Below, piece after piece: positions 1 through 58,417 of a stretch of 64,000 nucleotides of DNA. Under the pieces are notes generated by a model, which saw nothing but the letters and a program-made list of their open reading frames with translations, ran no database searches and was not told the DNA's origin. The stretch covers positions 5,084,001-5,148,000 of the forward strand of contig NC_042998.1 of assembly GCF_006345805.1 (NCBI RefSeq), written 5' to 3'. A program made the position numbers and the translations under genes. Source of the DNA: Octopus sinensis (lineage: Eukaryota). Position 1 is the first letter of the stretch. Each line of letters starts with the position of its first letter.

Positions 1-115
1 TGGTCATCTATTCTTTCGGGGTTGATAAAATACGTACCAGTTAACTACTGAGCTTGATGTGATAACCTTCCCCATCTCATTTAAAATCCATGGCTTTATG
101 CCAATATTTCAAGCT
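1..115 (+). mobile_element. Diverged partial copy of SINE family C (Nin/Deu-like core plus tail)
   Basis: ttctttcggggttgataaaatacgtaccagtt resembles the core cctttcggggtcgataaattaagtacca of the copies at 2348 and 29510. Confidence 0.6.
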
Positions 116-301
116 TATATATCAGTGAGGAGCCCTTTACTCGATTGCCAAGTATGGCAGGAGTAACCATTAATTTTTCATCATATTAAATCCTGCCGCC
201 ATGGGAATCAGAAAATTTCTTATATCAGGAAAGTCATAGTTGGAACGCTTTTAATCATGTACACAGTGGATCAGGGACCAAACATCAATGGCAGCATATT
301 T

Positions 302-365
302 AAGGCGGTGCTTCAGCATGGCCGCAGTCAAATGAGTGAAACAAATAAAAGGATAGAAGAATAAA
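302..365 (+). mobile_element. 3' end fragment of SINE family A
   Basis: aaggcggtgcttcagcatggccgcagtcaaatgagtgaaacaaataaaag matches the 3' end of the full copies at 467 and 55101. Confidence 0.75.
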
Positions 366-466
366 AAATGATATATTACAGATAAACTCAGCCTCCACAT
401 GGGAAATATTCAGGCATAAAAACAAGAACAGGAGAGAAAGTGAAAAAAAAAGGCATGATTAAAAAA

Positions 467-628
467 GGCGCTGGAGTGGCTGTGTGGTAAGTAGCTTGCT
501 AACCAACCACATGGTTTCGGGTTCAGTCCCACTGCGTGGCCTCTTCGGAAAATGTCTTCTATAGCCCCGGGCCGACCAATGACTTGTGAGTGGATTTGGT
601 AGAGGGAAACTGAAAGAAGCCCGTCGTA

Positions 629-684
<56 letters not shown>

Positions 685-901
685 TGTGTGTGTGTTTGTG
701 TCTGTGTTTGTCCCCCTAGTATTGATTGACAACCGATGCTGGTGTGTTTATGTCCCCGTTACTTAGCGGTTCGGCAAAAGAGACCGATAGAATAAGTACT
801 GGGCTTACAAAAGAATAATTCCCCGGGTCGAGTTGGCGGTGCTCCAGCATGGCCGCAGTCAACTGACTGAAACAAGTAAAAGAGTAAAGAGAGAGAGAGT
901 A
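467..901 (+). mobile_element. tRNA-derived SINE family A, near full length, with internal (TA)n(TG)n
   Basis: Head has A-box-like tggctgtgtggtaa and B-box-like gggttcagtccc, an internal microsatellite at ~626-700 and an A-rich (gtaaaaga) tail. At least five other near-full-length copies occur in the window. Confidence 0.9.
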
Positions 902-1000
902 TTAAGGAGATGTAAATATGCACATGACCATAAAAGCTTGGAATAAATGTCAATGGAGACGGATTTAGCAAGTCATTAGCGGTCTATATACCGAAACCGT

Positions 1001-1380
1001 GGAGTCGCAATGGCCCAGCGGTTAGGGCAGCGGACTCGCGGTCATAGGATTGTGGCTTCGATTCCCAGACCGGGCGTTGTGAGTGTTTATTGAGCGAAAA
1101 CACCTAAAGCTCCACGAGGCTCCGGCAGGGGATGGTGGTGATCCCTGCTGTACTCTTTCACCACAACTTTCTCTCAATCTTACTTCCTGTTTCTGTTGTA
1201 CCTGTATTTCAAAGGGCCGGCCTTGTCACTCTCTGTGTCACGCTGAATATCCCCGAGAACTACGTTAAGGGTACACGTGTCTGTGGAGTGCTCAGCCATT
1301 TACACGTTAATTTCAAGAGCAGGCTGTTCCGTTGATTCGGATCAACCGGAACCCTCGTCGTCATAACCGACGGAGTGCTA
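1001..1380 (+). mobile_element. tRNA-derived SINE family B (head/core B, tail T1)
   Basis: tRNA-like head (tggcccagcggttagggcagcggac...gcttcgattccc). The core is shared with 5661-5892 and 28700-29005. Flanking direct repeat taccgaaac at 989-997 and 1388-1396. Confidence 0.88.
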
Positions 1381-2139
1381 TCTAATGTACCGAAACAATT
1401 CAAACTTCGGAAACTAGTTGAAAAATTTAAATCAATGCAAACAAACAAATAAATAAAATGAAGATTATGCAGCGAGCATTGGGAGAGAATTGACCACTTT
1501 GTTTCGCGTTAACTTGTCCTTACCTATCTCAAAGTATACGCAAAGTAGATAAGTTATATTGTTTGGTCAATGCGAAGCAAAAACATTCTGTCGGATGCAG
1601 CGACCAGTAAACACTGGGCTGTGACTGCGCAAACAAAATGGAATATCAGACTAAACCATCGATACATTAAAAACTGAATATGAAAGAATTCTAATATATC
1701 TCTATAGAAATTTTGTCTGGAAAAACATTGCTCTTTAGGAGACTGAGATGTTTCTCACAAATGTATGAAGTATATGGAGCGGATAAATTTTAAAATTTGT
1801 TCTCATTTTATTTCCGCAAATATAGATAGTTCACCATAAAAAAGAACACACGTAAAACTGCAGGCAGCTTACATCTATACATTCAACACAATATAGTATT
1901 CTTAGGCACAGCATTATAACCTAGAATGTTTTGAAATTTAACTGAAAACACGACGGAAGATATTACACAAAATAACAACAGTGGAAGAAATTAAATTATA
2001 TGAAGATATATTTTATAAAGAAAAAAGCAATGTGATTTTAACTTATTTAAAACTGTGAATAACAACAACGACGACAGCGATGATGACGATGATTACGATG
2101 GCGACCACGGCAACAATAACAACAACAATATTAATAATA

Positions 2140-2290
2140 AGTTTTCATATTATAGACACAGGACCTGAAATTTTGTGTGGAGGAGCAACAAGATTATATT
2201 GACCCTAGTACTCGAGCGATATTGATTTCATCGTCCCCGAACGGATGAAAGATAAAGTCGAATTCTGTGAAATTTGAACGTAAAGACGTA
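2140..2290 (-). mobile_element. Diverged SINE family C copy
   Basis: cccgaacggatgaaagataaagtcga...aatttgaacg core plus a gacacaggacctgaaattttg tail. Confidence 0.7.
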
Positions 2291-2347
2291 ATAATAATGT
2301 TACCAACTCATTAACTTGCGGCATGACGAAAATGAATTTTTAAATAT

Positions 2348-2582
2348 ATTTCTTTACTACCCACAAGGGGCTAAACATAGAGGGGACAATCAAGGACAGT
2401 CAAACGGATTAAGTCGATTATATCGACCCCAGTGCGTAATTGGTACTTAATTTATCGACCCCGAAAGGATGAAAGGCAAAGTCGACCTCGGCGGAATTTG
2501 AACTCGCGACGTAACAGCAGACGAAATACGGCTACGCATTTCGCCCGGCGTGCTAACGTTTCTGCCAGCTCACCTCCTTCAT
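2348..2582 (-). mobile_element. SINE family C (tRNA head, Nin/Deu-like core, tail C1), full length with 20-bp TSD
   Basis: Minus strand reads gagctggcagaaacgttagc...gagttcaaattccgccgaggtcgactttgcctttcatcctttcggggtcgataaa. TSD gaaaatgaatttttaaatat at 2328-2347 and 2583-2602. Confidence 0.92.
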
Positions 2583-2681
2583 GAAAATGAATTTTTAAAT
2601 ATCCCATAAACAGGCGAGCGTGTGTAGATGAAATGGCATAAATAAAAAAAATATATGGAGAACGCACTCAAACGTGAGTGA

Positions 2682-3299
2682 ATTGGCCTGAGGGGTCACA
2701 TAAGAGCCTTCTGCCCTCCCCCAGGGAAAGAAATGGATTCCGAACCACACAGAGAGAAGCAGAAACCAGAGGAGAAGGAGACAGTAGAAGAGGAAGAGAA
2801 TACACAGAAATGGAAGGAAGCTGGAAATAAGAGGAAGAGAAGAATACGAAGAAAAGAAAATAACATGGAACACCAATCCACCCCAAAACCACCCACACCC
2901 TCTGAGTCCCACCCTATTCCTGCAGACAGTGAACCCACCCGCTCCCCCCCCCCAACAAGAAAACAAAAGAAAAATAATAATACACACACACAAGAGATTG
3001 AATTCGATATCAGGCCGTACATTTGTACTATGACTGAACAGAAAGAAGTTAAAAGTCTAATGGAAGAGTATAAATGGTATGAAGTTGGTGAGACTAGGTA
3101 TGCTGTGATTGAAAAGAAGAACATAGATGAGTTTATGGTGAGGTGTGAAAGGGAGAATTGGGAGGTGAAGGATATAAGAATGAGCGATGAATTCGTGGAA
3201 AATATGGATGAGTATTTCGGAGTAAGAATGGATATGGAATTTATTCGTATTGGCAAAGAACATTCAAGTGACGATGAAAAACAAAGGACAGGTAAGTGA
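2682..3299 (+). CDS. Truncated ORF1/gag-like protein: C-terminal half of a CCHC zinc knuckle, charged/basic linker, C-terminal domain
   Basis: In frame upstream of the ATG at 2733 the sequence reads IGLRGHIRAFCPPPGKEM, matching CFLCGIRGHMKARRCP in the 5972 ORF. Confidence 0.7.
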   Translation: MGLRGHIRAFCPPPGKEMDSEPHREKQKPEEKETVEEEENTQKWKEAGNKRKRRIRRKENNMEHQSTPKPPTPSESHPIPADSEPTRSPPPTRKQKKNNNTHTQEIEFDIRPYICTMTEQKEVKSLMEEYKWYEVGETRYAVIEKKNIDEFMVRCERENWEVKDIRMSDEFVENMDEYFGVRMDMEFIRIGKEHSSDDEKQRTGK

Positions 3300-3451
3300 T
3301 GCTAACGGATGGGGCCGTTGGTATCGCTTTCATACTATCATTTTCTTTCACTTAACAATTCATTTTTCATAAATTTTAATTATAATGTTCTATGTCCCCA
3401 TGTCTTTTGGTGTCCCCCTCTGTGTCGCCCCTAGTGGGTAATAAAGAATCA
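2682..3451 (+). mobile_element. 5'-truncated ORF1-only (HAL1-like) retroposon with 14-bp TSD
   Basis: TSD tcaaacgtgagtga at 2668-2681 and 3452-3465. The reading frame is open from 2682 to the stop at 3299, followed by a ~150-nt 3' UTR ending in aataaagaatc. No ORF2 is present. Confidence 0.8.
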
Positions 3452-3469
3452 TCAAACGTGAGTGAGGAT

Positions 3470-4450
3470 CCTTCATTTGGGCTTCGTTAAAGTACCTCAC
3501 AAATGTGAATATATTTAGCACAGTGAACAAGATCATTTCCTCTACTTATCATGAGGTTATACAACTGGTGATTCCCTAGAAGCTGTAAATTCTGCTGTGG
3601 TGCGTTTTCTCTATTACCTTATTAGGATGGTTCTAATGGGTTTCGAGACACCTACTGCAGCTTAATGTTGCATGTTTCACAGAAAGGCATTCTTAACTGT
3701 AACACTAATCTTTACTACAACACCAATTATTTTCTATTTCTACTCAGCATGTAACATTCCAGCTTGATTGCTTATTCTTCTTCAGGAGAAATGAGAAGTT
3801 GCAGGTTCCTAGAAACTTGTGCCGACCACATGAAATTTTATGTCACATCAGCGCACATCCACTGCTCGTCCTTTGCTGTGAAGGTTACTTTCATATCAAA
3901 CGATATCTTACATCGTCTGTTCCTTTGAGAGACTTTGAAAATCCACCCCACCAGGACTTAGCGAAACGCTAGAATGGCACATTCCTCCTTACTTGCTCTA
4001 AGGTAAATACTTCATTCCTTTGAGACCAGCTGCTATCATGATGTATGGTTTTGCCACTGCTCCCCGATCTACTTTTTTTCCCAAAACAAAAACAAAAGAA
4101 TATTGCTCTTCTCAGACTATCCTATACTAAGACTATTGCTTGTAATGTCGCCCAAGTTTTTCATAGAGTCTCAGACCAAGCCAAGCGACAAGCAAATTAA
4201 CAGGTGAGACATTCCAGGACTTTAGCCAGCAGCTTCGAATTGCTTCTCCGCATCTCCAAGTTTTGGCGCATTAATCTTTTGAGTCTGTAATGACTCAGGA
4301 ACGTGTGAGCTATTGAGACTTACTTAATATCCGATATAATTACAGTAACGTCATCCACCCATAACAACGCGGGTCTTCCGTATCTAAGTTACAACTGGTG
4401 ACACGTCAAACCCTTCAATTACCAAGGTACTGCCTGCAGAGTCACTGCAT
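3470..4450 (-). pseudogene. Highly degraded non-LTR reverse transcriptase remnant
   Basis: Minus strand at ~4330-4375 reads RPALLWVDDVTVIISD, an RT catalytic DD-type motif. The rest is broken by stops, so the extent is uncertain. Confidence 0.35.
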
Positions 4451-4539
4451 ACTGAAGAGTTGAGTCTGGGTCTACGGAAATCACATGTAACTGGTCAATA
4501 TGTTCTTTCATTCACTAAATTACTAGACACGTTGTTCGA

Positions 4540-4918
4540 AGTCTTGATATTAGATTATACCCAACTGTTATATCCTTACCTATATTTTCGTATATTTTTT
4601 GTTGTCATTCTTGTTGTTTGTATTAATAATCGCGTAACATTTTCTCCGTTTTCTCGTTTTTTTTTTTGTCGTCGTGTTGTCGCCCATATTCGCTCGCTTT
4701 CGTCCAAAAATTTAATGTCTTCAGCTTAGATTTTTGGGACCTACCAATTTTGAACAGTCTAAGTGTAACAAGCCGAAACTGTAACGATGATTGGAAGCTT
4801 GACAGAGGAATAGACAACCACGGATGTTCCATCCTAGTTTTCCTGTCCGTCTTTGTATCGTCCATCTGTCCGTATGTTTTTATTGTCGCGGTTACGTTCT
4901 TGTTCCGTTTTTTGAATT
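4540..4918 (+). mobile_element. Penelope-type non-coding repeat fragment
   Basis: Homologous to both arms of the element at 61170-62010 (taacaagccgaaac...gtatcgtccatctgtccgtatgtttt...cgttcttgttcc). Ends at a (TA)n tract. Confidence 0.6.
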
Positions 4919-4974
4919 TATATATATATATATATATTGTTGTTCTTGTTGTTATTTAGGTGGCTTTTTCACAA

Positions 4975-5086
4975 TTTACAACCAAAAGGCACAAGTATAG
5001 ATGTCACTAAGATGATTAATAATGCTACTGAGCACTATTACCTCCAGTCACTTTAGTGAAGTCTATACCTGTGCCTTTTGTATAAA
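4975..5086. repeat. Short inverted repeat / MITE-like hairpin
   Basis: aaaaggcacaagtatagatgtcactaag pairs with tttagtgaagtctatacctgtgcctttt. Confidence 0.75.
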
Positions 5087-5092
5087 TATATA

Positions 5093-5501
5093 TTATATAT
5101 AACTTGGTTTAAGAAGAGACAAAAAGTTAGATACTCATTCTATAGTTATGATTTACATCAGTATAAAATATAAATATAAAATTAAAGCAAGACAAGGAAC
5201 ATATTTATATATCGTTGAGAAAAGAAATGATAATTATATGAGGCAAAGGTATACGTGAAAAGGATAAATATATAAAGTTTGATATATTCTTCGGAACTCC
5301 TCTAAGTTGTTAAACTCATGATTAGGATTTCTTACTACCGCCGATGTATCTGACAACTTTTCGTCCTTAAATTTAACTCATGTAATTCTTATGTTCCTTG
5401 TCTTGCTGTAATTTTATGTTATATGTATTTATTATGTTGATGTAGATCATAACTATAGAATGGTTATCTAAATTTTTGTCTCTTAAAACCAAATTGTATA
5501 A
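5093..5501. repeat. Fold-back element with ~110-bp imperfect inverted arms
   Basis: ttggtttaagaagagacaaaaagttagatactcattctatagttatgatttacatca...gcaagacaaggaacat is mirrored by atgttccttgtcttgc...tgatgtagatcataactatagaatggttatctaaatttttgtctcttaaaaccaa. Confidence 0.8.
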
Positions 5502-5660
5502 TGTCTAATGTCTCGGGTTCGACCTGAGCACTTCTAAGCAATTGTTTAAAAAGAAACTTTTTCGAAAAAAATTCATGTGTGTGTGCGTGTGTGTGTAAAT
5601 TGTATAAATTAATATTTACACTTTCTGGACGTGCTCATCAATTATAGTATAGTTCCCAAT

Positions 5661-5892
5661 ATCACCGTGATCACCGTGGCCGACCAGGCTATCAGATGTT
5701 GCTACACATCGCTGGTCACAATGCACTTCACATTGTTTTAGCTTTCAAATGACGCCACCCCGCTGGCTAAGCGAGCAGGCCAACAGAAGAAAGAGTGAGA
5801 GAAAGTTGTGGCGAAAGAGTACGGCAGGGATCACCACCACCCTCTGCCGGAGCCTCGTGGAACTTTAGGTGTTTTCGCTCAATAAACACACA
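5661..5892 (-). mobile_element. 5'-truncated SINE family B (core B, tail T2)
   Basis: Core matches 1083-1180, but the tail is unrelated and ends in a (cacggtgat)2-like repeat. Confidence 0.85.
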
Positions 5893-7060
5893 TCAACTGC
5901 AACATTCACTCAACTCAGAGGTAGACACTGAGATAATAGAAATATCCAGAACAACAAAGGTGAACCAATAAGTGTATGGGCTGGATGTTCTGGTCCATAT
6001 AAGTCTGCCAGAACTCCATACGATTGCGGAGGAACTGATACTGCCGAACGAAGAAAGGCTGAAGATAGTGGTGGAAGGAAGACTATCTGTATGTTGTTTT
6101 CTTTGCGGAATAAGGGGACACATGAAAGCAAGGAGGTGTCCGCAGCAACAAGAAAAGGAAGTAGAACAAGAGAAGCAGGAAGAAAAAAAAGGAACAAAGT
6201 GCAGAGGTACAAACGCAAGTAAACGAAAATATAGAAAATGTAGGAGAAAGGTACAGAGTTGGAAAAAGAATGAAGAAAAGAGAAGGAAATGGTAATTCAC
6301 CACCCAAAAGTCCACAGAAAAAGTGAAAAGAAAATATAGAGGAGAATCAATGCGAAAGACCAGAGATACCAAAAAAAGAAAATTACGGAGGAGGAAGAGG
6401 GAAGTGCGGAGAAAGGAAAGGAAGAGAGACAGCGGCAACAAGGAGATATGAGATATACAGAGAGGGATGTGAGACCAATACCAGGAACATCAGGAGAGAA
6501 TAACGATGGAAAATTGGAATTGGTAACAAAAGGAAAACACAGTCGAACGATGGTAAACTATAAAAAGAGTGTAAAGATCGAGAGAAAGATTACAAAAGTG
6601 AAAAATGCAATTAGAATCAAGTTATGAGAGAGGGAAAATACGGAGAAAGACAGGGCGGTCGTGGTCGAGAGGGACAGATATGAAAGGTTAAAAGAGCTAT
6701 TTGGGGAACAAATTGAAATACCGCCGTTACAGGTTCGATACGACGAGATGCCAGCAGTGGTGGCATTTGAAGATATAATACAATATGCACCATGAAAGTA
6801 AGTGAAACACTTAAAATAATGACTTTTAAAACAAAAAAAAAAACAATGTAAAATAAGAATAATGAACTGTAATGTTAATATGTGAGACAAAAACAGTAAA
6901 ATGGAACCACTTGCTTTGTGGGGTAGGAAAGCCATTTCATTCTCATTTTCATTACACCCATAATTCATTCGATATGTGTTTTATGTACCCCAATGTATTG
7001 CTTTCTCTGTTTTGTTTTCGTCCTTTCTATATTGAGGCCTTGTGCCTAATAAAAGAAATC
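5893..7060 (+). mobile_element. Degraded ORF1-only (HAL1/Tx1-ORF1-like) retroposon
   Basis: LKIVVEGRLSVCCFLCGIRGHMKARRC zinc knuckle, then frameshifted K/E/R-rich coding sequence to a stop at ~6775, then a 3' UTR ending gaggccttgtgcctaataaaagaaatc. No ORF2. Confidence 0.7.
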
Positions 7061-9054
7061 AGAAGTCGCAGGAGTCGTGGGAGTCGTTGAGATCGTTGAG
7101 AATTTGTATTTATTGGAGTAATTTGAAGTACGTTGCCTAAAGACAGTTAAGTTTATCTCCGTTTTGTGAAATCTGTATATAAATGTTAAAGAAAAATAAT
7201 AAATAAAAATGTAAAAAGAGTGTATATTATGAAATAGGAAACTAGCATAAACGATTTACACAAAGAGGTGGCTCCACCTAAAATAGTGATTTATCTTGAG
7301 TAGAAAAGATGATTTTAAGTGGTGAGCTAAATGAAATTGTACGTAGAGGGCAAATGCTTATGATATATTTGTCTAAATGCATCATATCTGACATATTTCG
7401 TTGTATTCTGAAAGAAACTCTATATAGAAATAAATGTTAGCAGAAATTTGAACTAATATGACAGTTACTTTTTTATGCCTTCAAGAAAAAAATAATTTAC
7501 TCTGGATATAAAAAAAACGAAAGCATGAATTATTTTGTAAAATTACTTTACAGAAATGTGAAATCCATGCGTATATTGTATATGAAGTGATAGTGAGAAA
7601 ATGTCAGACAGTATCGTAGGATTATGGGACATGATTCAGACGAAATACGACACATTTAAGAATATTACGTCTGAGGCGTATTAGACGTAATATCAATCAT
7701 TTAAACTTCTTCAGTTAATGTTGAATTATTGATACAAGGATTTTTAAAAATTTACTAGAAACGACTATGTCATGGCTGAAAATAATAATTAATTGATGGC
7801 TCCTATTATTTTCTTTTAGAAAGGACTTGTGAGATCTAAATATACGCTTCTTATATTTTATTATAACCTCCTCAGTGAAGCCAGAGCTTCACTACATTTA
7901 CCAATTAAAGAATCCCTGTCTAAATGGAGAATAAATTGCATTTATTGTCGTTCAGAAAAATAATTATTTAGTATATTAAAAAATCTCAAAGATGCTGATG
8001 TTACTTGACGCAGGGAAAATATAAAAAGAGCTAAATGTAAATGATCGTATTTTTTCCCACTATATTTGTTTATACGTCACTTTTTATGTCGTTAAAAAAA
8101 TAGAAACATGTCTGGAGTCCAGAGTAATTTACTGAAATGTCTCACCTAATTAAAATTATATTATTCATTGATTATAATTGTTTTATACTCGCCACATAAT
8201 TATTTCTATTTAGATTTTCTAGTTCTTTTCTGAAATAAATATGTCAATACTAACTTTAGTTTTATGCTTCATGCGAATGACATTCTCTAGTTAGTTATTC
8301 ATTTAAATGTGTTGTTTTGAATATATAATCGCTGGATAATTAGTAGCATTAAGAAAGCAGGATTCATACCTTTTAGCAAGCAATCTGGGTGGATATAAGA
8401 TAAGCGGCTTGCTAATCTTGGTTGCTTCCTCAGTATCCTTGTAGATAAGGAGAATAGATTACTGAATATTTAGCGAAGATGTTACCTTCATACAGAAAAG
8501 ATATCAAGGCCAACTGCGGAATATTGATATTGCAGACAAAACTATTTAGTAATAGTTAGAAATCTATCAATATAACATCTGCAAAGCATCATGTGTTGTT
8601 TTCCTGTCTTTTCTTATATGTTTTCACTGTTACTGATGGCTTTTAAGAACCTGGTTTAGTAGGAAAAGCTAAAAATGCATACCTAAAAAGTCAAACGGAA
8701 GTTGACTCAATAGATGCATATTTCCGAAAACAGTTTGAAAACTGAAGCAAACGTTATTGGTGTTGTATTTACATATATGCGTATCCTTTATCATTGTTCC
8801 ACATTCTTTACTTTTTAACTATTAATGATGAATGTCAAAGTTTCATCCAGCACACAATGAAGTATAACTGGTGAATCAGTTAGATATCTTCATGCAAATA
8901 TTTATTGTAATGTAACGAAATTAGTGACGTCGTCTTTTAGAGAACGTTGCGTCATATCGTAATAGAACCAACATAATTCAACAGGGAGTACCGTACGAAA
9001 CCTGCATTACATTGGCTGCTTTCAATACCTAGGAGTCATTTTAGTTAATACTTA

Positions 9055-9195
9055 GGAGTATTTCGTACGTCTCTACGTTCTGAGTTCAAATTCCGCTGAG
9101 GTCGACTTTGCCTTACATCCAAATATTGAAGTCGATGCAATAGATTTATCCCTCCCATAAAATGTCAGGTCTTGCGCCTCTAATAGAAATAAGTA
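9055..9195 (+). mobile_element. Diverged, internally deleted SINE family C copy
   Basis: tacgttctgagttcaaattccgctgaggtcgactttgccttacatcc...aggtcttgcgcctctaatagaaa. Confidence 0.8.
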
Positions 9196-9217
9196 TTACA
9201 TCTACTTCTAGGTTGTT

Positions 9218-9320
9218 GACTTGACTTTATATTCGCTTGTAAATGATTATGCCATACCTCCAAGGAATTAATTGTTCGTGGTAAATCATAGCATATGCGG
9301 TCATATACGTTCCACATACT
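9218..9320 (-). repeat. Ectopic ~100-bp copy of MULE transposase sequence
   Basis: Near-identical to 10230-10330. Confidence 0.85.
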
Positions 9321-9608
9321 ACATGCAAGTCAACTCTCTCACCATCAAGATGAAGTAATTAAATCCCTAGTAGAATTTGTATCTTTCTGACCTTCACTAA
9401 GTTGATAACCTTATTCTCATAGCACAGCAAATTGTGAGCGGGAAGACTTGTTAATTTCTTTTGCGAATACTGTAACCAAGCTCCTCTTGTCCGTCATAGT
9501 AAAGTAGGTTGACTACCTGACCATTAATGAGAATTCAAAGTATCTACTACTTTGCTATAAGGACGGTGCACAACACAAGGAGCTCGTGTGTTCTTGGCAT
9601 TAAGAAAC

Positions 9609-10654
9609 GGTATCCGGACAACTGTCCGACTGATGGTCGAGTGCCTGACGGTCAAATGCCCGTCGGACAATTGCCCAACTGTCAACTGCAAGATGGAGAA
9701 ATGCGCGACAAACACAACTGCCAGAATGACAACTGCCCGATAATTTTAAAGTAAATTGAAACTAAAATATAAAAATATTAAAATTAACTAAACCGAAATT
9801 ATAATAAACGCCTTTGTCAAAATGTAACATTTAAAAAGATAATACATTTTTTCAACGGTAAATTATAAGTACAAAACATAGAATTTGTTTTATTTGGGGA
9901 AACCGAGGTAGAACTTTAACAACAAAAAAAAAGAAAATGCATTGAATTTCATAATATTATTTACAGATAATTTATCAATATCACGAACAATAATGTAATT
10001 CGGAAAATAGTAAAAATAACTAAAACTTTAAGTCGAGCTATTTCCCTCAAAAAGTCCATCACTTCTCGATTTTCATAATCCTCCACAATATTTGCAATTC
10101 TTTTCATTAAATCTTGATATTTTTTTTCCTTTTGGGGTGAAGGCTGATGTCCTGTCAACGTTTGGTTGGTCGTGTCGTTAAGTGCTTGTTCCGTCTTCAA
10201 TGCCTGGAGAAAACGCCAGATATTTGGATGACTTGACGTTATATTCGCTTGTAAATGGTTAGGCCATACCTCCAAGGGATTAATTGTTCGTGGTAAATCA
10301 TAGCATATGCGATCATATACGTTCCACATACAAATAGGAAAGCATTGGTTGCCTCTCTTACGCCTCGTATTCTACAGATATAAGCATCTTCAAAGTAATC
10401 AATGATTGGATCTGCTTCATGGCACAAATTTTCTTATTATTGCTCAAAGATTCGCCCAAATGACAGATAAAGTGAGATGAAAGACAGATACAGATGAAGT
10501 GAAAGTGTCTGTCAGGCAGATATCTATCGGTAAGTTGTCCCTATCGCACAGATCTGTGTCAGACAGTTGTCCGTCGCGCTTATGTCCGCCGGGCAGTTGT
10601 CCATCGGGGAAATGTCCGTCGGACAAATACTCGTCGAGCAGTTGACCTAGAACC
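9609..10654 (-). mobile_element. Mutator-like (MULE) DNA transposon, internally deleted, 9-bp TSD
   Basis: TSD ttaagaaac at 9600-9608 and 10655-10663. GG...CC termini and inverted subterminal arrays of (g)gacaa(c/t)tg(t/c)cc motifs. Confidence 0.9.
9961..10427 (-). pseudogene. MULE transposase C-terminal fragment, frameshifted
   Basis: IIDYFEDAYI, WNVYDR..DLPRTINPLEVW and SSHPNIWRFLQALKTEQ correspond to MULE YF..TW / RTNNxxEGW / HPNIWxF motifs. Confidence 0.85.
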
Positions 10655-15370: not shown

Positions 15371-18342
15371 CTAGGTATATTTCATCGTGAGCTACGGGTT
15401 TTACTAACCCGACGCTTTACAAAATATTTTTTGAATTTTTTTCCAGTAAAAATTACAATTTTTCATAAATTCATTATAAATATGAATCTGTAAAATTTCT
15501 AGCAGATCATTAACAAAACCTGTCACAGTACTCAATGCGAATAATTAAACATTAGATGTTCGGTGTCATGGCACATATAAGCATGGGGTATGGCACCTAT
15601 AAGCACTAAAAATGAAATCTGCCAACGTATGAATGAATATCTCCCAAAACGTTAATGGCCAATTAATTGCACCAAAATTAAAGAAAAGCGATATGCTGTT
15701 TATTGACGTTATGTTGCATCAATTGATATACACGAATAACCTCCCTTGCTTTGAGTTTAGATCGACTTCAACTGCGTATTGTCTCCGTTTTCTCGTATTA
15801 AATTCTAAAATAAAATTTATGATTTCGATGATGATGGCAACTTCGATGATGATGATGATGATGATGATGATGAAATGGACGCCGACATGGATGTTTGGAT
15901 ATGGAGTTTGACGACGAAGATGTCGATGTCCACAACGACCGCCCACATCATTTCGATGCTGACGATGTTACCAAATTCTATGGCACCTATTACAGTGTAT
16001 GGCTCTGACGTCAATTGTACATAATCATAGTCGGACGCCTCATACGACCATCGTGAAGAACATCTCCTTGAAGTACCCTGCCTAGTAGTTCTACGAATTA
16101 CATTACCCTCAACTCGGTTATCTCGATCAGTTGGGATTTCTGCAGCTCTAGCAGCAGCAGCAGCATTTGCTGCAGCACCAGCACTCTGATGCAACAGACG
16201 CTGTTCTTGAGTCTCTGCTGCCGCAGGATCTTTGTTCCGATAGACTGCACGGTGTCCGTCAGGCTCTGCTGCTCGAGCATCAGCAGTCACTGCAGCATTT
16301 CGCTTCCGACAGACCGTATGCTCTCCGTCAGTCTCTGCTGCTCGACCAGCATCAGCAGCAGTAGCAGCAGTTATTTTGTGACGTATCAAACGATGTTCAT
16401 CGGTAGCCATTGTTCTTGAAATAGCTCTTCTCAAAGCATTTTGTGTTAACCTACTATTAGTGTCTTTTTTCTGGCGTTTCATTAGCTTACCTGTTTTTCC
16501 CTTTAGAAACTCGCGCAGTGTTGCCCCCGATTGAAGGCGAGATCGTCTAGGTATGGTTATCTTTGAATCGACAAAAACACTTAAACAATAAACTTATTCG
16601 CCAATGGTGACAAATTTTTACGCCTTATACATTCCAGCATTACATGGGACCCGAAACATGGCTGATGCAGTATCTAGTATATTGGATTGTTCTTTTGACA
16701 ATAATTACAAAGGATATTAATGGTAAAAGGTCTATGATGGTTTAAGTGCGTCGCAAGCTTGTCTATAAATACTACTTATAGGCCCCCAAAATTGTTTATA
16801 ACGATTGCAAATAATGTTTACGTAAAAACCTGAAATAGAAGGTAAAATGGCATAAGACATATAAGTTTTGGCTATTTAAGTATGGCTGTAAGCCTGGTTA
16901 CTGATGCCGGAATTTATTTGCAGAAGTTAAAGGCCGATTTAAAAAAAAGAGAATGCAATATCAAAGGATTACCAAGAAGATGTGATTTCTGCAACTGAAC
17001 TTCAGGTTTTGTTGATCCGTATTGCGTGTATGCGTTCATGAACTACTAGGTATTGATTTTCTGTACACAACCTGCATACAAAAACATCGCTAGTGCATAC
17101 AGATTAGATTAAACCCTGAAAATGCACGTGTGCTTTAATTGCATTGACAAAACTCTGTATCCAGTTAAATAAGATAAAGAAATTTCGCGAGCTATCTTTA
17201 AAATAATATTATTAACTGTAGTTTACACGTGTAGTTAAAAAACGATGCGTCTCAGTAAAAACAGGATTTTTAAGTAAAAGCGTGAAAATACTGAAATAAT
17301 TAGGGATGTTTCATCTGAATCTAGTGCAAAAATACTATAATCGCCAGAAAGTGTAGGCCAAAAACCAGTTTAAACTACTTATTTTGGGCGTTTTGAATTA
17401 AATGTGTTCATATAAGCTTTTAAGAAATTCTGTTAGGGATTGAAGAACTTTCGGCTAAAAAATTGTTTTCATCCCATTTAGTTGCGGATATTCCCCCATT
17501 TAAAGCGGATGACCCAGAAAATATTTTGCTTCAAACAGTTCTTGTCTCAAAATTGATGTTGATGTGCAATCTGGAGCAAATGGGTAGCAAAAGGCAGAAG
17601 TTATTGACTAAACAACGATTTTCAGCTCAATCATTTGCAGATGTTTCACCGTAAAGCACTAACGACATTGAGGAAAAATTGATCAAACTAATATGTTGAC
17701 CACAAGTACTGTTCCTACCAAATCTGAAGTAAATCGGTTGCAGCGAATAGGTATTATTAAATGTTTAATTTGCAAGTTCAACAAAAAATACACTTTTCAC
17801 TGCTTTTCGCACTCTCCGTGCAACATGGCTTCCATTGAAAAAAGTTAAACCACATAATTAAATTAAACCACGTAATTTTCGTAGCATGACAAATTTTTTG
17901 CAACAAATTTTAACAAAATCAGTTGCAGCTTTTAGAAGTTATAAACAGTTCAATTTTCGAGTTTTAAGAAAAAATCGATTTTTTCAATTTTTCGAGTTTT
18001 TCGTGCAACGCGGCCGTGTTTTGAGAAAGTTTAACCACTCTGCATAAACTTCACAGCATTACAAATTTTTGCAAAATGTTTGAAGAAAATCGGTTACTCC
18101 TGTGAAAAGCTTACCCGCGTGCAACTTTTACCTTCCTTTTTGCAAAAAAGTTGAATTTATCGATTTTATCGATATTTGTCCAAACGCAAGTTTTTTCAAA
18201 AACTTTTTAAGCTGGGAACTATTCCTGGTAAATTTACAATCTAATGGTGAATATTTCATTAAAATAGGTTGGGTGGATCTCGAGTTTTAACGTCTTGACA
18301 AACACAATGACAGACACACATCCTGTGTTTTATATACATAGA
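15371..18342 (-). mobile_element. Helitron (~3 kb, non-autonomous or deleted)
   Basis: Minus strand starts A|TCtatgtatataaaacacaggatgtgtgtctgtc and ends ...cccgtagctcacgatgaaatatacCTAG|T. It contains a Rep-helicase N-terminal-like ORF. Confidence 0.8.
15817..16482 (-). pseudogene. Degraded N-terminus of Helitron Rep/helicase protein
   Basis: Repeated RAAET/RAAEP/AAETQEQR units followed by YDY...VIGA, resembling the N-terminal region that precedes the Helitron zinc finger and Rep domain. Confidence 0.65.
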
Positions 18343-18482: not shown

Positions 18483-18585
18483 AAATGCACATATACATGC
18501 ATTACATACACATACTTCTGTGTGTGCAAATAGTGTAAGTACATACTTTCCTGTATAATAATTATAATAATTATAATAATAATAA

Positions 18586-18745
18586 TCCTTTCTACTCTAG
18601 GCACAAGGCCTTGAAATTTTGGGGGAAGGAACTAGTCGACTACAACGATTCCAGTACACAACTGGTACTTAATCTATCGACCCACAAAGGATGAAAGGCA
18701 AAGTCGACCTCGGCGGAATTTGAACTTAGAACGTAAAGACGGGCA
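18586..18745 (-). mobile_element. SINE family C with tail C2
   Basis: Core aggatgaaaggcaaagtcgacctcggcggaatttgaact with tail ctttctactctaggcacaaggcc, next to (TAA)n. Confidence 0.88.
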
Positions 18746-19994
18746 AACACCATCGCTAATTTAAATAATAGAGCAAAAATATGAATGAAGAAATAAGTGA
18801 GATAACGATAAGACAAAGAAAAGAGAGAGAGAAGAACTGAAATAATCGAACAATATAAAAAACGAAAATAAAACAATATATTAATAGCCAAAAGCATGAG
18901 ATACGGAAGAATATTTTACGTAAAGCCCCAAACTATTTATGCTATAGACAGGAGTCTTTTAGAAATATCACATAAGTTGTAACTGAAGAAATCTCAACAT
19001 GATTTGTAAGAGAATTTGTCATAATATTAATAAAATAGACATATATATCTTTTCATGAATTATTAAAGATGTCTTCCTATGAAATCGCTAATATTCTGAA
19101 GTACGAGATTGGACTCGATTTTGACAGTAAATCATTCATCGCAAAAGCAACATTCTGACCTCTAGTAATTTATTGACAAAACTAACCGAAATTCTAATAA
19201 TTTTTATTGATCAATGAATCTTTAAACTTCTATTCTGGTTGAAATAAAGCTTATTGACTATAGGTGCGCATGCCATTTATTTCATATATTTATTTTTATA
19301 CTTCTTTCAGTTTATGCGTTCATATACTGCACGCATAATATACACACGTATATAGGCTCAAACAGAAAAAAAGATACGTACGCAATGACATACATACATC
19401 GAGATGCAGATATCATTTGTGTGCTTACGACTGTTTATTTATTTGTGTACATACGCATATAAATACATAACCTTTTCTAAAATCGTTTTTAAAAATCTCT
19501 TGCATATTTGCTTATTCATATATTTCGTTGATTGAATGAAAAATTTATAAGGAAACATAAAATTTTATACCAGAAAACTCTCGTGAATTATGGATTAGTG
19601 CATACTTAAGTTTTCTTGACCGGATATACACACGATCATTGTAACATTAACTTCTATTTATCAAATAATAATAAATATATGCCTAATGTAAGACATCTGT
19701 AAGTTATTAAATAATATGTATGAACGTTAGATATGTCAGCCGTATACTTATATGTGTGCTATGTATCTCAGTGCGTACGGAGGTGCATCTAGGCAAATTT
19801 ATGTTTGTCTGCGAGCTCATATATTTTTATATTTTACCTTTGAGATAACATCTATAGTTGAATAACAAAATATGTTAAACGCGAATAAATTATATATATA
19901 TTGAATAAAATAGTCCAAGTCCTTATCATAATATAGCTTTCATTAAATAACACATATATATAATATATATATATATAGGTACACAATTAGCTAC

Positions 19995-21358: not shown

Positions 21359-21500
21359 AGGTGTAGGCGTGGTTATGTGGTAAGAAGCTTGCTTCCCAAT
21401 CACGTGATTCCGGGTTCAATCTTCTACAATTGCGCCGGGCCGACCAAAATGTAGTGAATGGATTGACTAAATGGAAACTGAAAGAAACTGTCATATAAAT
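21359..21500 (+). mobile_element. 5' half of a diverged SINE family A
   Basis: ggcgtggttatgtggtaagaagcttgcttcccaatcacgtgattccgggttcaatc...ggaaactgaaagaaac. Confidence 0.8.
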
Positions 21501-21811
21501 AAATATATATATATATATATTTCAAAATGTGACCTCGTGTGTACCGTTGGCGATTTTTTTTCCTCTGTCTTCCCTTCTCGGGATCTTTCCTTCTCCTCTG
21601 TTTCCGACGAAGAGCTCCGCTCGAAACGTTAAACCCCCCTTCTTCCCTTCTTTCCTGGGCGTCCAATAATACTATATTGTTCCACGTCCTCGCGTTGTTG
21701 TTTTTTTGTGTCTTCTTGTTTGGATTAACTATATATATATTTATATATATATATATAATATATATATATATATTATATATATATATACACACGCACACAC
21801 ATACATACAAC

Positions 21812-21851
<40 letters not shown>

Positions 21852-22017
21852 GCACACACATACATACAAACATTTATATATATATATATATTGAGAGGGA
21901 GGGAGAAAGAGAAAGAGGTAGATAGATAGAGATAGATAGATACATATATTTATTATTTATTATTTAATTGAACGCGACGCATCCATTTTCAGGTATAAAT
22001 ACATGTGTATGTGTGTG

Positions 22018-22114
<97 letters not shown>

Positions 22115-22606
22115 TGTGTGTGTTTGTGTGTATTATTTTCCTGCCGATATGCCTCTGATAAACTCTAAATAATTATGACGATGTTTGTTACATGGAACGA
22201 GATAAATGTAAATTTCCTTCAAATATAAGAAACTGAAACAGCTGTAAATGTTATTTTAACTACAATTAAACGATGACCATTTAAAACCAATGATCAACTT
22301 ATAATTTTTAATTGTTGCTCAAATTCTTTTCTTATCTGTATATACATGCATATATATAAAAAATAATATATATATATATATTTCAAAATGTGACCTCGTG
22401 TGTACCGTTGGCGATTTTTTTTCCTCTGTCTTCCCTTCTCGGGATCTTTCCTTCTCCTCTGTTTCCGACGAAGAGCTCCGCTCGAAACGTTAAACCCCCC
22501 TTCTTCCCTTCTTTCCTGGGCGTCCAATAATACTATATTTGTTCCACGTCCTCGCGTTGTTGTTTTTTTGTGTCTTCTTGTTTGGATTAACTATATATAT
22601 ATTATT

Positions 22607-22637
<31 letters not shown>

Positions 22638-22668
22638 TATATATACACACACGCACATACATACAAAC

Positions 22669-22713
<45 letters not shown>

Positions 22714-22901
22714 CACATACATACAAACATTATATATATATATATATATAATATATATATATATTGAGAGGGAGGGAGAAAGAGAAAGAGGTAGATAGAT
22801 AGAGATAGATAGATACATATATTTATTATTTATTATTTAATTGAACGCGACGCATCCATTTTCAGGTATAAATACATGTGTATGTGTGTGTATTTATATA
22901 T

Positions 22902-22976
<75 letters not shown>

Positions 22977-23251
22977 GTGTGTGTGTGTGTGTGTGTGGTG
23001 GTGTGTGTGTGTGTGTGTTGTGTGTATTATTTTCCTGCCGATATGCCTCTGATAACTCTAAATAATTATGACGATGTTTGTTACATGGAACGAGATAAAT
23101 GTAAATTCCTTCAAATATAAGAAACTGAAACAGCTGTAAATGTTATTTTAACTACAATTAAACGATGACCATTTAAAACCAATGATCAACTTATAATTTT
23201 TAATTGTTGCTCAAATTCTTTTCTTATCTGTATATACATGCATATATATAA

Positions 23252-23328
<77 letters not shown>

Positions 23329-23620
23329 TGTGTGTGTTGTGTGTGGTGTGTGTGTGTGTGTGTGGTGTGTGTGTGTGTTGTGTGTATTATTTTCCTGCCG
23401 ATATGCCTCTGATAAACTCTAAATAATTATGACGATGTTTGTTACATGGAACGAGATAAATGTAAATTTCCTTCAAATATAAGAAACTGAAACAGCTGTA
23501 AATGTTATTTTAACTACAATTAAACGATGACCATTTAAAACCAATGATCAACTTATAATTTTTAATTGTTGCTCAAATTCTTTTCTTATCTGTATATACA
23601 TGCATATATATAAAAAATAT
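21500..23620. repeat. Tandem duplication/triplication: ~870-bp unit twice plus a third copy of its ~230-bp distal block
   Basis: Block tattattttcctgccgatatgcc...cttatctgtatatacatgc occurs at ~22130, ~23025 and ~23385. Differences are mostly single-base indels and microsatellite lengths. Confidence 0.92.
21520..21732 (+). mobile_element. Penelope-type short repeat with degenerate minimal hammerhead (duplicate at 22380-22592)
   Basis: gttt-CCGACGAA-gagc tcc gctc-GAAA-cgtt-aaac at ~21600-21634, flanked by (TA)n on both sides. Confidence 0.6.
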
Positions 23621-23621
23621 A

Positions 23622-23657
<36 letters not shown>

Positions 23658-23819
23658 TGTATGTATGTATGTATGTATGTATATATGTATTTATATATAT
23701 ATGTGTGTATGTAAATATACATATGTATGTATGTATATATGTATTTATATATATATGTGTGTATGTAAATATACATATGTATATATATATATACATGGGA
23801 GGTGTATATGTGTATGCAT

Positions 23820-29509: not shown

Positions 29510-29741
29510 TATTTCTTTACTACCCACAAGGGGCTAAACGCAGAGGGGACAAACAAGGACAGACAAATGGATTAAGTCGATTATATCGACCGCAGTGCGT
29601 AACTGGTACTTAATTTATTGACCCCGAAAGGATGAAATGCAAAGTCGACCTCGGCGGAATTTGAACTCGGAACGTAACGACAGACGAAATATGGCTACGC
29701 ATTTCACCCGGTGCGCTAATGTTTGTGCCTGCTCGCCGCCC
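29510..29741 (-). mobile_element. SINE family C, tail C1
   Basis: Highly similar to 2348-2582; flanking repeat aatactc(g/t)gtttata. Confidence 0.92.
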
Positions 29742-30009
29742 TGAATACTCTGTTTATAGTTTTCTTAGTTGCATATTTGAAACACATCTTTCTTACATTT
29801 GCTTGTGTTCCATTGGTACACAGAAGTCGTGAAGCTATTCTTTCGGTACACTTGCTTCTCCGGTTAACGCTTTCAGCTAACTAGCGTACTCCCAATTTCG
29901 TCCACTACCCACCTACATTTTCTTCCCACTTTTCTATCATTTAAGCGGTACCATTATTTAATCCCAACCATACCGCTTAGATTCTGCTGTTTTAATTAAC
30001 TAAATTTAA

Positions 30010-36560: not shown

Positions 36561-37986
36561 ATGTATATATATAAGGATAAGATAATTAAATATAAAATAA
36601 AATAACGATTTTATCAAGTGGTCAGCATGGAAAAAAATAACCTTCAAAGGTGATAATTATAAAAATTATATATATATATATATATGCCACAGTATCTTGG
36701 AAAACGGTTTTATGATCTTATAGCCCGGGAACAGCCCTTGATCCTTTTTTTTTTATTTCTATGCTCCAATTATTTAAACTACTAAAAGACTACATAAACA
36801 AGTTTATCAGTATGCAGCTTATGGCGCGCATTTATGGCATATTTATTTGAATAAACGTGTGTGGGTATATATTATACTACCTCCTCTTGTTCATATGAAT
36901 GTAAATGATTCAAATCATAAAAATATTATCATATATATTTCGCATTGTTGAAGCAACATTTGCAGCCAGCAACATTGGATTAAAGAATCTAGATTTAGTT
37001 TTCAATCTTTTGTGTTACCAAAACTGACCAGAATGTGTTATCATTTCATTTATAGACGTTGAAAAACGTTTATTTGTTTAACTGGATATAGATATGATAC
37101 AATTGTCTTGTAAAGTTTATATCATACTTGTTATCTTCTATTTGTTTGTTTTGGCTTTGTGGGGAATCTTTTCCGACAATTTACAATCGGGTGTGTTTAT
37201 TTTGCACCTCTATCTCGCAATTTACCATATCTTCTTATAAGAACACGTGTGTAGCATATATTATATATATATATATACATATGTGTGTAAGTGGCTGTGT
37301 ATGTACATACATAAATAGATATACAAATATACACATACACACATATATACTTAACATATATATGTATATATATACTTACAGACATGTATATATATATATA
37401 TATACTTACAGGCACGCAGACACACAGACACATACGTATGTGTGTAAAAATGCGTTGTTATTTTTAGAAAAAACAGCTATTTCGATTTTAGTATAACTTA
37501 TTATTGATTTTCCGTACTTTTATATTCCTTTATGCTTAATTTCATTCAATACATGGGCATTTTCATGGATACCTTTTACACGGTAAAATAAAATCATATT
37601 TCTAGTAGATAATACCTGTTCGTGGTTCAAACCATGCATTGTGTAACTTATTGTTACGTGCTTTAATGACTTCTTGTGGCAAATGTAGGAGTAGGCAAGA
37701 AGTTTATTTGTATATAGGAGTGAGTGTAAACGTGTGTGTAGGTTCGCATGTGCGTGTACATATATTTGTGGATTCGTGTGCATAAATTGTGCACATGAGT
37801 ACAGGCAAGTTCAAAACCGATATAAATTCTACAACGTTGACAAAATACGTTACTATAAATCATTTCTACTGCTACTCTGTTATCTCATAGGTAGACTGAT
37901 CATCCACAAGATACTATTCCCAAATATAACCAGAGTCCGTATGGCGATAACACTTAATTAGAGCTGGATGAAGAAGGGTTATAGAC

Positions 37987-38199
37987 ATACTCTTTACTCT
38001 TTACTCTTTTACTTGTTTCAGTCATTTGACTGCGGCCATACTGGAGCACCGCCTTTTAGTCGAGCAAATCGACCCCGGGACTTATTCTTTGTAAGCCTAG
38101 TACTTATTCTATCGGTCGCTTTTGCCGAACCGCTAAGTGACGGGGATATAAACACACCAGCATCGGTTGTCAAGCAATGCTAGGGGGACAAACACATAT

Positions 38200-38253
<54 letters not shown>

Positions 38254-38407
38254 GACAGGCTTCTTTCAGTTTCCGTCTACCAAATCCACTCACAAGGCAT
38301 TGGTCGGCCCGGGGCTATAGCAGAAGGCACTCGCCCAAGATGCCACGCAGTGGGACTGAACCCGGAACCATGTGGTTGGTTAGCAAGCTACTTACCACAC
38401 AGCCACA
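37987..38407 (-). mobile_element. SINE family A
   Basis: Reverse complement of 467-901 and 55101-55517. Confidence 0.92.
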
Positions 38408-39963: not shown

Positions 39964-41247
39964 TTGTAAGTGTTAATACTTTATAGTTTTAAATTAGCTT
40001 TAATCGTAGCAAGGTCTTATAATAATAGTTAATTACAAGTATACTTTTATTAGTTCATATTTAATAAATTTAATGTTTCTATTAGTTACTGGTAAGTTTG
40101 CATTAAAACTTGTAAGGATAATATATATTGATGAGTATGTAGTGTTTTTGCTATTAACTTTTCAATTAGGAAATAATATATTTCACTCATAATTATTATA
40201 TTATTCGTTAAATTAAATTCAATCGTGTTTTGTTTTGGAGAAAATTGAAATAAAGCTTTCACTTTTTATATTATAGTAGTAACTATGGAAGACTGATGGG
40301 ATTATTATTTGTATGGACTTAAAGATTGGTCGCTATTTAGTATATAATTTAGTTATTGTATGTTTACTGTTAATACCGATACTATTGTGCATAGGGTAAA
40401 TGTGTTTGAAAGTTGTGGTTTTTTGTATGTTTGTTCTCAAACAACACGTATTTCAGTGCTTGTTGACACCGCCGGATTGAATGGTAGTGTCCAGGTGTCG
40501 AAACCATAATGATATCCGTGGGGCAGCTGATGATGGATGTATGTTGGATTGTTGGTATGGCTATTTTTGTATCTGTGGAATCCTTTTGAGATATACGTAT
40601 ATATGTGTGTGCACGCGCGCGCGTGTGTGTGTGTGTGTGCTTGCGTGCGTGTGTGTGTATCCGTATATCTTGTTTTATAAATTTTAGAAAATGTTTTATA
40701 AAAGATGAAGCAATGTTCACTGTTTTGATATCGCTTCTACTATAGGCACATGGCCTGAATTAATGGATTAAAAATTGCATCTTGAAATAGCGAGCTAAAT
40801 ATTTCCTCAGGGTGGGAATTAGACACAAAAAGAATCACATCATAAACGATCAGGTGATCATCAACAGACACAACATGTCAATAATGTGAGCGCGTGTGCA
40901 TGTTAGTATTTTAAAAAAACCTGTATAATCATGGCTTTTGGTTTTATTTATTTGTGCGCCGTGTGTTAAATTTACAATATTTTATATCGAAATATAACCA
41001 TATATATCGAAGTGTAATAACCATTAAACTCCGTAATATATTTATTGGTGACCACTTTAACCAATAAAAACCAATACTATTAAGTGATACTGGATTGCTG
41101 AACATTTCATCGATATATAACATTAAGCCGGTGAAGCTTGGATACTGACATCCATTTTTAAGAGGTATGTGTATCCTCAAAATGAATAAATAAATATATA
41201 CGTATATATATATATAAATATGTGTGTGTGTGTGTCTATATATTTAT

Positions 41248-41643
41248 TCTCTTACGCTTTTATTATTTTACTTGTTTCAGTCATTTGACTGCGGCCATGC
41301 TGGAGCACCATGGAGAAAGAACAAATTGACCCCAAGACTTGTTCTTTGTAAGCCTAGTACTTATTCTCTCGGTCTCTTTTGCCGAACAGTTATGTTACGG
41401 GGACCTAAACACCACCAAGATCGGTTGTCAATCGATGATGCGGGACAAACACAGACACAAATAACAAACACACACATATATATACGACGAGCTTCTTCCA
41501 GTTTCCGTCTACCAAATCCACTCACAAGGCTTCGGGCGGCCCGAGGTTATAGAAGACACTCGCTTAATGTGCCACGCAGTGGGGCTGAACCCGGAACTAT
41601 CTCGTTGGGAAGCAAGCTTATTACCACACCCACTCCTGCGCCT
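41248..41643 (-). mobile_element. SINE family A (more diverged)
   Basis: Same head, body and tail as the other A copies. Confidence 0.88.
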
Positions 41644-41649
41644 ATACTT

Positions 41650-41651
<2 letters not shown>

Positions 41652-41747
<96 letters not shown>

Positions 41748-45521: not shown

Positions 45522-45556
45522 CATAATCATAATAGTGATGATGATGATGAAGATAA

Positions 45557-45770
45557 TTTTCATACTCTAGGCACAAGGCCCAAAATTTTAGGGGAAGGGG
45601 GACAGTCCATTAGATCGACCCCAGTATGCAAATGGTACTTAATTTATCGGCCCCGTAAGGATGAAAGGCAAAGTCGACTTCGGCAGAATTTTAACACAGA
45701 ACGTAAAGACAGACAAATTACCGCTAATCATTTCACCCGTTATGCTAACGTTTATCCCAGCTGACCACCT
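45557..45770 (-). mobile_element. SINE family C, tail C2, within (TAA)n/(TGA)n
   Basis: Tail tactctaggcacaaggcccaaaatttt plus the family C core and head. Confidence 0.88.
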
Positions 45771-45890
45771 TGATAATAATAATGATAATAATAATAATAA
45801 CAACAGCAACAACACAACAACAATAATAATAATAATAATATTGATAATAATGATAATAATGATGATGATGGTGATGATGATGATGATGAT

Positions 45891-47032: not shown

Positions 47033-47036
47033 CTAT

Positions 47037-47268
47037 TACTCTTTTACTCTTTTACTTGTTTCAGTCATTTGACTGCGGCCGTGCTGGGGCACCGCCTTTA
47101 GTCGAGCAAATTGACCCCGGGACTTATTCTTTGTAAGCCCAGTACATATTCTATCGGTCTCTTTTGCCGAACCGCTAAGTGACGGGAACGTAAACACACC
47201 AGCATCGGTTGTCAAGCAATGCTAGGGGGACAAACACAGACACACAAACTTATACACACACACACACT

Positions 47269-47300
<32 letters not shown>

Positions 47301-58367: not shown

Positions 58368-58417
<50 letters not shown>

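Follow-up and report, generated by a model that had tools for sequence, protein, structure and literature searches.

A 770-nt insertion in the genome of Octopus sinensis is probably a 5′-truncated copy of a many-copy Octopus LINE that has ORF1 only and would be copied in trans by a partner element with stringent template recognition, via a 3′ hairpin in common with local SINEs. We assign a probability of about 0.6 to this reading. The insertion occupies positions 2682–3451 of the window, i.e. of the 64,000-nt stretch that was analysed (NC_042998.1, 5,084,001–5,148,000, forward strand).

The insertion and its ORF1-type gene

The features of the insertion and of the related elements in the window are listed below.

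2348–2582, minus strand: SINE copy with the 3′ tail of the focal type, flanked by a 20-bp target site duplication (TSD; 2328–2347 and 2583–2602)
2668–2681, plus strand: 5′ TSD, 14 bp, sequence TCAAACGTGAGTGA, 14/14 identical to the right copy
2682–3299, plus strand: 3′ part of an ORF1-type gene, an open frame of 205 codons that ends with TGA at 3297–3299
2685–2714, plus strand: second half of a CX2CX4HX4C zinc knuckle (GLRGHIRAFC), from the alignment to the complete knuckle of the relative P0033
2715–2996, plus strand: E/K-rich, basic, proline-rich linker, which aligns with P0033
2997–3296, plus strand: C-terminal region, core at about 3018–3176, with a ferredoxin/RRM-like fold predicted at low confidence
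3289–3297, plus strand: splice-donor-like CAG/GTAAGT at the end of the ORF, GT at 3292–3293
3300–3451, plus strand: 3′ UTR, 152 nt, homologous to the UTR of the second element; the last ~40 nt are in common with a SINE tail, without poly(A)
3427–3439, plus strand: terminal hairpin GCCC-CTAGT-GGGT, from sequence pairing, a likely recognition tag for reverse transcriptase (RT)
3452–3465, plus strand: 3′ TSD, 14 bp, the first bases of which (TCA) repeat the last three bases of the element
about 5898–7061, plus strand: second ORF1-only-like element, decayed, with knuckle, linker, UTR and hairpin AGGC-CTTGT-GCCT
29511–29742, minus strand: second SINE copy with the focal-type tail, flanked by a TSD of about 15 bp that has one mismatch

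The TSDs on both sides of the insertion are perfect, and the 14-mer has no third site in the whole window. The probability of such a duplication arising by chance is ~3e-9 per site, or 3e-6 over 1 kb. The open frame starts at the first base past the left TSD and runs from stop to stop. Plus-strand frames of at least 205 codons were found in none of 2000 dinucleotide shuffles, and in 7 of 2000 when either strand was considered. On the opposite strand, 201 codons are stop-free (2696–3301); this frame overlaps the ORF and was not counted as evidence. Only the short 3′ UTR separates the stop codon from the end of the element, and the sense strand is A-rich (40% A). No other frame of the window (131 entropy-filtered frames of at least 62 aa, the focal frame apart) had any Pfam match at E≤0.001, so that no intact RT or endonuclease is present nearby. 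The original prediction, which had been made from the sequence alone, was thus correct about the perfect duplication, the stop-free frame, the short UTR and the lack of a following endonuclease or RT. Its terminal AATAAA is present at 3440–3445, but no poly(A) follows, and the motif aligns with AGTAAA of the SINE tails; the element ends with GAATCA, and the target then begins with TCA.

Several other parts of the window were inspected. In the right flank, the minus strand of 3466–4560 may be a decayed LINE in opposite orientation, with an LLWVDD stretch at 4367–4350 that was the sole RT-like DD motif found by pattern search; this candidate was rejected, as it had no Pfam or PDB support. A 258-codon stop-free frame (15820–16593, minus strand) is Ala/Arg-rich, has internal repeats and lacks a Pfam match. 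A 103-bp direct repeat (9217–9319 and 10229–10331, 95%) within 9217–10371 lies near a 136-codon minus-strand frame that resembles a transposase C-terminus by eye, without a Pfam match at E≤0.001. Tandem duplications with units of 360–930 bp and ~94% identity occupy 21493–23680. A search of window positions 1–8000 against Rfam matched solely the region of a (TA)n tract, and ARAGORN found no tRNA genes.

The N-terminal part of the focal protein was compared with P0033, which is 52% identical across query residues 2–103. The focal GLRGHIRAFC pairs with GLKGHKRANC inside the complete P0033 knuckle, RKCFKCGLKGHKRANC, and therefore the 5′ end of the insertion cuts through a CX2CX4HX4C knuckle, as had been proposed. 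P0033 keeps a 242-aa frame with the intact knuckle (zf-CCHC, E=0.0086, Pfam score below the cut-off) and thereby supplies the N-terminus that is missing from the focal copy. P0033 is an RRM-CCHC protein, i.e. ORF1-type, although its Pfam scores are below the cut-offs, and the focal knuckle and linker align with it. In the Atlas, P0033 residues 1–125 were placed near RRM plus zf-CCHC, ZCCHC3-RBD, PRE_C2HC, DUF4283 and unnamed CCHC clusters, with feature scores of 0.85–0.91 and TM values of 0.55–0.61, which are leads only. The predicted structure of P0033 is poor (pLDDT 43). Judged by sequence similarity, the ORF1 of the focal family is of the RRM-CCHC type (type I). Transposase_22 (PF02994) was absent from the four Pfam rows that were retrieved for the focal protein at E≤10.

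The C-terminal domain had been described as unrecognised, which holds insofar as neither sequence nor fold has a confident match; a fold could, however, be predicted at low confidence. The model has the order beta-alpha-beta-beta-alpha-beta, with a mean pLDDT of 54 and about 70 across residues 21–60, suggesting a small ferredoxin-like fold at low confidence. Its structural neighbours are generic ferredoxin-like proteins, the best having Z 6.8, rmsd 2.5 and 61 aligned residues; none of 48,161 chains reached Z≥8, and Foldseek returned none at E≤0.001. A PDB sequence search gave no match at E≤10, and an Atlas search with the C-terminal part gave no usable one. A Pfam match to Ephrin (E=2.5e-4) was rejected because its 21.5 bits are below the cut-off of 25 and the model is alpha/beta, whereas ephrin is a beta-barrel. 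A role of the domain in RNA binding or assembly is a guess.

The 3′ tail, local SINEs and a second element

The last ~40 nt of the focal element match the 3′ ends of SINEs at 2388–2350 (E=2e-5) and 29548–29513 (E=1e-3), and none of 1000 shuffles gave an equally good match. The tail is a different one in further copies of this SINE body (18590, 45560 and 9160). The body, which we take to be CORE-type, is present on the minus strand at 18585–18760, 45555–45785 and 50213–50391, in addition to the two copies listed above, and on the plus strand at 9046–9190 and 2192–2279. Two or more types of 3′ tail are thus attached to this body, and they keep the same hairpin loop. At 18585 and 45555 the SINE copy passes into (ATT)n, and the one at 45555 is bordered by (TTA)n on either side. 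A second abundant SINE-like family of ~430 bp, which ends in (GAGTAAA)-type repeats and is devoid of the hairpin tail, was found at 458–893, 37980–38406, 41237–41658, 47027–47480, 55092–55511 and 58119–58585.

All hairpin-tailed retroposons have a 4-bp stem around CTWGY. The focal element and two SINEs have the stem GCCC/GGGT, and the complementary version, RGGY/GCCT, is that of the second element and of three SINEs. All 28 stem cells pair (slid controls: 25–54%), and two of the four pairs are changed on both sides, the two-sided change probably being one event that is counted in several rows. The strict hairpin pattern, which was defined after the sequences had been seen, has six sites in the window, each about 10–15 nt from the 3′ end of one of these retroposons. 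Folding of the whole tails is mostly unremarkable (z of −2.2 to +0.9), and the hairpin is present in two of five minimum-energy folds. A tail in common with SINEs, together with compensatory changes in the hairpin, indicates stringent 3′-end recognition. Common tails with compensatory stem-loops mark stringent recognition by LINEs (PMC3747384, PMC4824008, PMC11481361), while mammalian L1 depends on poly(A) (PMC3747384).

The second element has a full CCHC knuckle, VVEGRLSVCCFLCGIRGHMKARRCP, at 6095, followed by a charged linker with frameshifts. Its last stop is at 6793–6795, and a 266-nt UTR ends with AATCA. It matches P0033 (pairwise E=1e-5) and P0037 (E=3e-7). Its UTR is collinear with that of the focal element over ~140 nt, with a similarity reached by none of 1000 shuffles, or by 25 of 1000 when the last 30 nt, which include the hairpin, were omitted. 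Outside the hairpin, its similarity to the second SINE tail is weak (15 and 208 of 1000 shuffles). A C-terminal similarity between the two elements was not detectable, and no TSD of the second element was found. As in the focal copy, no ORF2 lies between ORF1 and the 3′ end, which implies that both depend on the RT of another element and agrees with the proposed mobilisation in trans. Because two divergent elements lead from ORF1 straight into the same tail, a one-off deletion is unlikely.

The original prediction had called the element HAL1-like and derived from a Tx1/L1 ORF1, and this label is not supported. HAL1 carries a poly(A) tail, and HAL1 is defined by a type II ORF1 (coiled coil, RRM and CTD, without a knuckle). 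The focal element has neither this ORF1 nor a poly(A) end with relaxed L1 recognition: it has a CCHC knuckle, and GAATCA directly precedes the TSD. A true HAL1-type element, i.e. an L1 derivative moved by a relaxed, poly(A)-dependent L1 ORF2p, would have the same ORF1-only layout, a 14-bp TSD, an AATAAA near the end and an A-rich sense strand, and activity of L1-Tx1 has been described in O. vulgaris (PMC13282606). We nevertheless consider it very improbable, in view of the missing poly(A), the hairpin tail in common with SINEs, the knuckle and the lack of a Transposase_22 match. In addition, the structure of human ORF1p is only at rank 29 (E=0.81) of the Foldseek results for the C-terminal domain.

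Copies of the family in Octopus gene models

The C-terminal domain is present in 31 gene-model clusters of Octopus vulgaris on 15 scaffolds, which were told apart by length. One cluster was found among 529 longer candidates and 30 among 74 candidates of near length, species being taken from the cluster labels; the 30 near-length clusters hold 69 member sequences. An exhaustive search of 1.84 billion protein representatives gave 30 matches, all of which resemble the focal family. Twenty of them were new, and their host is presumably also Octopus. Altogether, 62 copies of the domain were counted in 48 proteins. The 39 full-length cores of 87 residues represent 20 haplotypes with common diagnostic changes, and the core of one relative is identical to the focal core at 87 of 87 positions. 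Subfamilies extend down to 72% and 61% identity. Hence, the family is young and multi-copy and comprises several subfamilies; the expectation of a young mollusc family is confirmed for Octopus.

The relatives are output of gene predictors, which favour open frames and a strong donor. The models are chimeric: they start at internal methionines, and they end at RTGK or exit by the donor CAG/GTAAGT. In 12 of 51 relatives the RTGK stop is identical to the focal one. An acceptor-like AG is present at 2993–2994, within the focal ORF, and together with the donor it explains the chimeric models. None of the 51 models starts at M18 or M62 of the focal frame, which fits 5′ truncation as well as predictor bias. 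The donor joins several relatives to unrelated exons (CFAP65, HAUS1, TACC and HTH domains). For example, an exon of the family is joined to CFAP65, HAUS1, a TP53RK-labelled model and a TACC-like coil in P0001, P0022, P0031 and P0051, and these fusions are either annotation artefacts or real exonisation. Many models among P0002–P0013 join two or three co-oriented domain copies, and the paired copies in P0008 and P0011 have rare variants in common, a hint of local duplication or tandem arrays.

One alternative named in the original prediction was that the sequence is a processed pseudogene of a host gene with introns, here one for a zinc-knuckle protein. The TSD, the 5′ truncation and the AATAAA are also features of retrocopies. 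However, the focal copy lacks poly(A), its tail is common to SINEs, many subfamilies are spread across 15 scaffolds, and the domain is joined to unrelated partners in the gene models. No conserved parent was found among the 1.84 billion representatives either, so that this explanation is hardly credible.

The focal copy could also belong to an ordinary two-ORF LINE family and have lost its ORF2 sporadically, e.g. by a template jump or by splicing at insertion. The copy is indeed 5′-truncated, and the family is otherwise known from predicted proteins. Moreover, P0020 ends in an endonuclease-like GDFNGH stretch after the linker of another family; it has no Pfam match, and we take it to be an RTE-type endonuclease motif. 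On the other hand, two independent elements within 3.6 kb lack ORF2 and have the collinear UTR in common. None of the 51 predicted relatives that were scanned had an RT or endonuclease Pfam match or was joined to RT. The search of longer proteins gave only the CFAP65 chimera, and ORF1–ORF2 fusions of P0033 residues 1–125 were found in none of 312 candidates, which is weak evidence. Taken together, these results make a sporadic loss quite improbable.

We also considered that the ORF might be a passenger: a LINE with a recent internal deletion would spread like a SINE, and its frame would be open since the copies are young. In line with this, a signal of purifying selection at the protein level was not significant, with p values of 0.06–0.24 for the diverged subfamilies and 0.81–0.85 for a young one (five rows with splice-junction misalignments were masked). 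Radical changes, i.e. W132R, V153G and D198Y, are common to several copies, and such variants occur among young subfamilies. In contrast, subfamilies that have diverged by 28–39% keep the frame over 77–87 codons, which was open in 9–23% of the runs of a neutral simulation, a comparison that is biased by gene prediction. P0033 keeps its frame and knuckle at 52% identity, and the same build recurs in a second, old family. Because the selection test was not significant, the passenger ORF stays the main rival to an ORF1-only LINE, although we regard it as unlikely.

Proposed mobilisation and comparison with known systems

For the preferred reading, a trans-copied ORF1-only LINE, the following course is proposed. 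A source copy would be transcribed with its 5′ UTR and a complete ORF1, encoding RRM, CCHC knuckle, linker and C-terminal domain in perhaps 400–450 aa. The ORF2p of a partner LINE would bind the terminal hairpin, nick the target and prime by the 3-nt microhomology TCA, and reverse transcription of the focal copy would have stopped after 770 nt. The ORF1 protein may package its own RNA and co-assemble with partner proteins, which, by analogy with HeT-A, could be the reason that the frame is kept. For HeT-A, multimerisation of ORF1p with the proteins of its partner has been proposed (PMC5786205). A wider scenario seems doubtful to us: an old, diversified Octopus lineage would comprise several protein-coding LINE parasites that have one RT-recognition hairpin in common with a major SINE family, the C-terminal ferredoxin/RRM-like domain would have been gained to capture a helper RT, and ORF1 and tail might stem from different LINE clades.

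Metcalfe and Casane describe type I ORF1s in the I, Jockey, R1, Tad1, plant L1 and L2 clades; in the L1 type, by contrast, ORF1 consists of coiled coil, RRM and CTD and is type II (PMC4120745). The LINEs that were recently active in O. vulgaris are RTE, Dong-R4, CR1, L1-Tx1, Hero and R2 (PMC13282606). As type I ORF1s are spread across many clades, the clade cannot be read from the focal ORF1. Among the O. vulgaris LINEs, L1-Tx1 and CR1/L2 have an RRM-CCHC ORF1, and TSDs of 14–20 bp favour Tx1 over CR1. L1-Tx1 is the leading candidate for the donor of ORF1, but only by exclusion. For a target preference of the Tx1 type, one target site was available, with flanks that are unrepeated in the window. 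In elements mobilised by RTE, a T stretch precedes the TSD by about 10 nt, and the TSD itself begins with T (PMC6007223). Among the few sites, the focal TSD starts with T but its upstream flank is A-rich, and the SINE TSD at 2583–2602 starts with A.

A young, abundant ORF1-only LINE in Octopus, with subfamilies and an older sister family, would add a phylum in which such an element arose independently. With it, one could test whether retaining ORF1 helps a non-autonomous element to compete for RT with SINEs that have the same tail. Through the common hairpin, the LINE behind an Octopus SINE family could be sought directly. The results also mean that the O. vulgaris annotation is contaminated, with at least 31 clusters of predicted proteins, some of them fused to CFAP65, HAUS1 or the TP53RK-labelled model; some real exonisation may also result from the strong splice donor.

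No ORF1-only element of cephalopods was found in the literature, including the available parts of PMC9115989, PMC4758252, PMC11203168, PMC4494074, PMC10294476 and PMC6007223, while repeat libraries may hold the family as L1-Tx1 or Unknown. An ORF1-only LINE derivative in molluscs has thus apparently not been described before.

The best reading of the focal element is an ORF1-only non-autonomous LINE of the kind represented by HeT-A in flies, HAL1 in mammals and Ag-Sponge in mosquitoes. HeT-A is targeted to telomeres, forms head-to-tail arrays and has a long 3′ UTR; in contrast, the focal copy stands alone at an interstitial site and has a UTR of only 152 nt, one visible knuckle and an extra C-terminal domain. 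These three elements are named as ORF1-present bipartite non-autonomous LINEs by Kojima 2018 (PMC5786205). Like the focal element, HeT-A (Drosophila, Jockey clade) has ORF1 only, and the ORF1s of the Jockey clade are type I (PMC4120745). HAL1 likewise encodes only ORF1p, is non-autonomous and is flanked by TSDs (PMC5753468). It is derived from mammalian L1, with a type II ORF1 (PMC4120745) and an RT that uses poly(A) (PMC3747384), and in both respects it differs from the focal element with its CCHC knuckle and its SINE-shared hairpin tail in place of poly(A). Ag-Sponge (Anopheles) belongs to the CR1 clade (PMC5786205), which uses stringent tails, as we infer for the focal element; host and clade are different, and the comparison is one of published descriptions. 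Bivalve SINEs and their partner LINEs (CR1, CR1-Zenon, L2 and Nimb) share tails of 35–61 nt, in which stem-loops show compensatory changes (PMC11481361, PMC4824008). The focal tail differs from these pairs in that it is common to SINEs and a protein-coding non-autonomous element.
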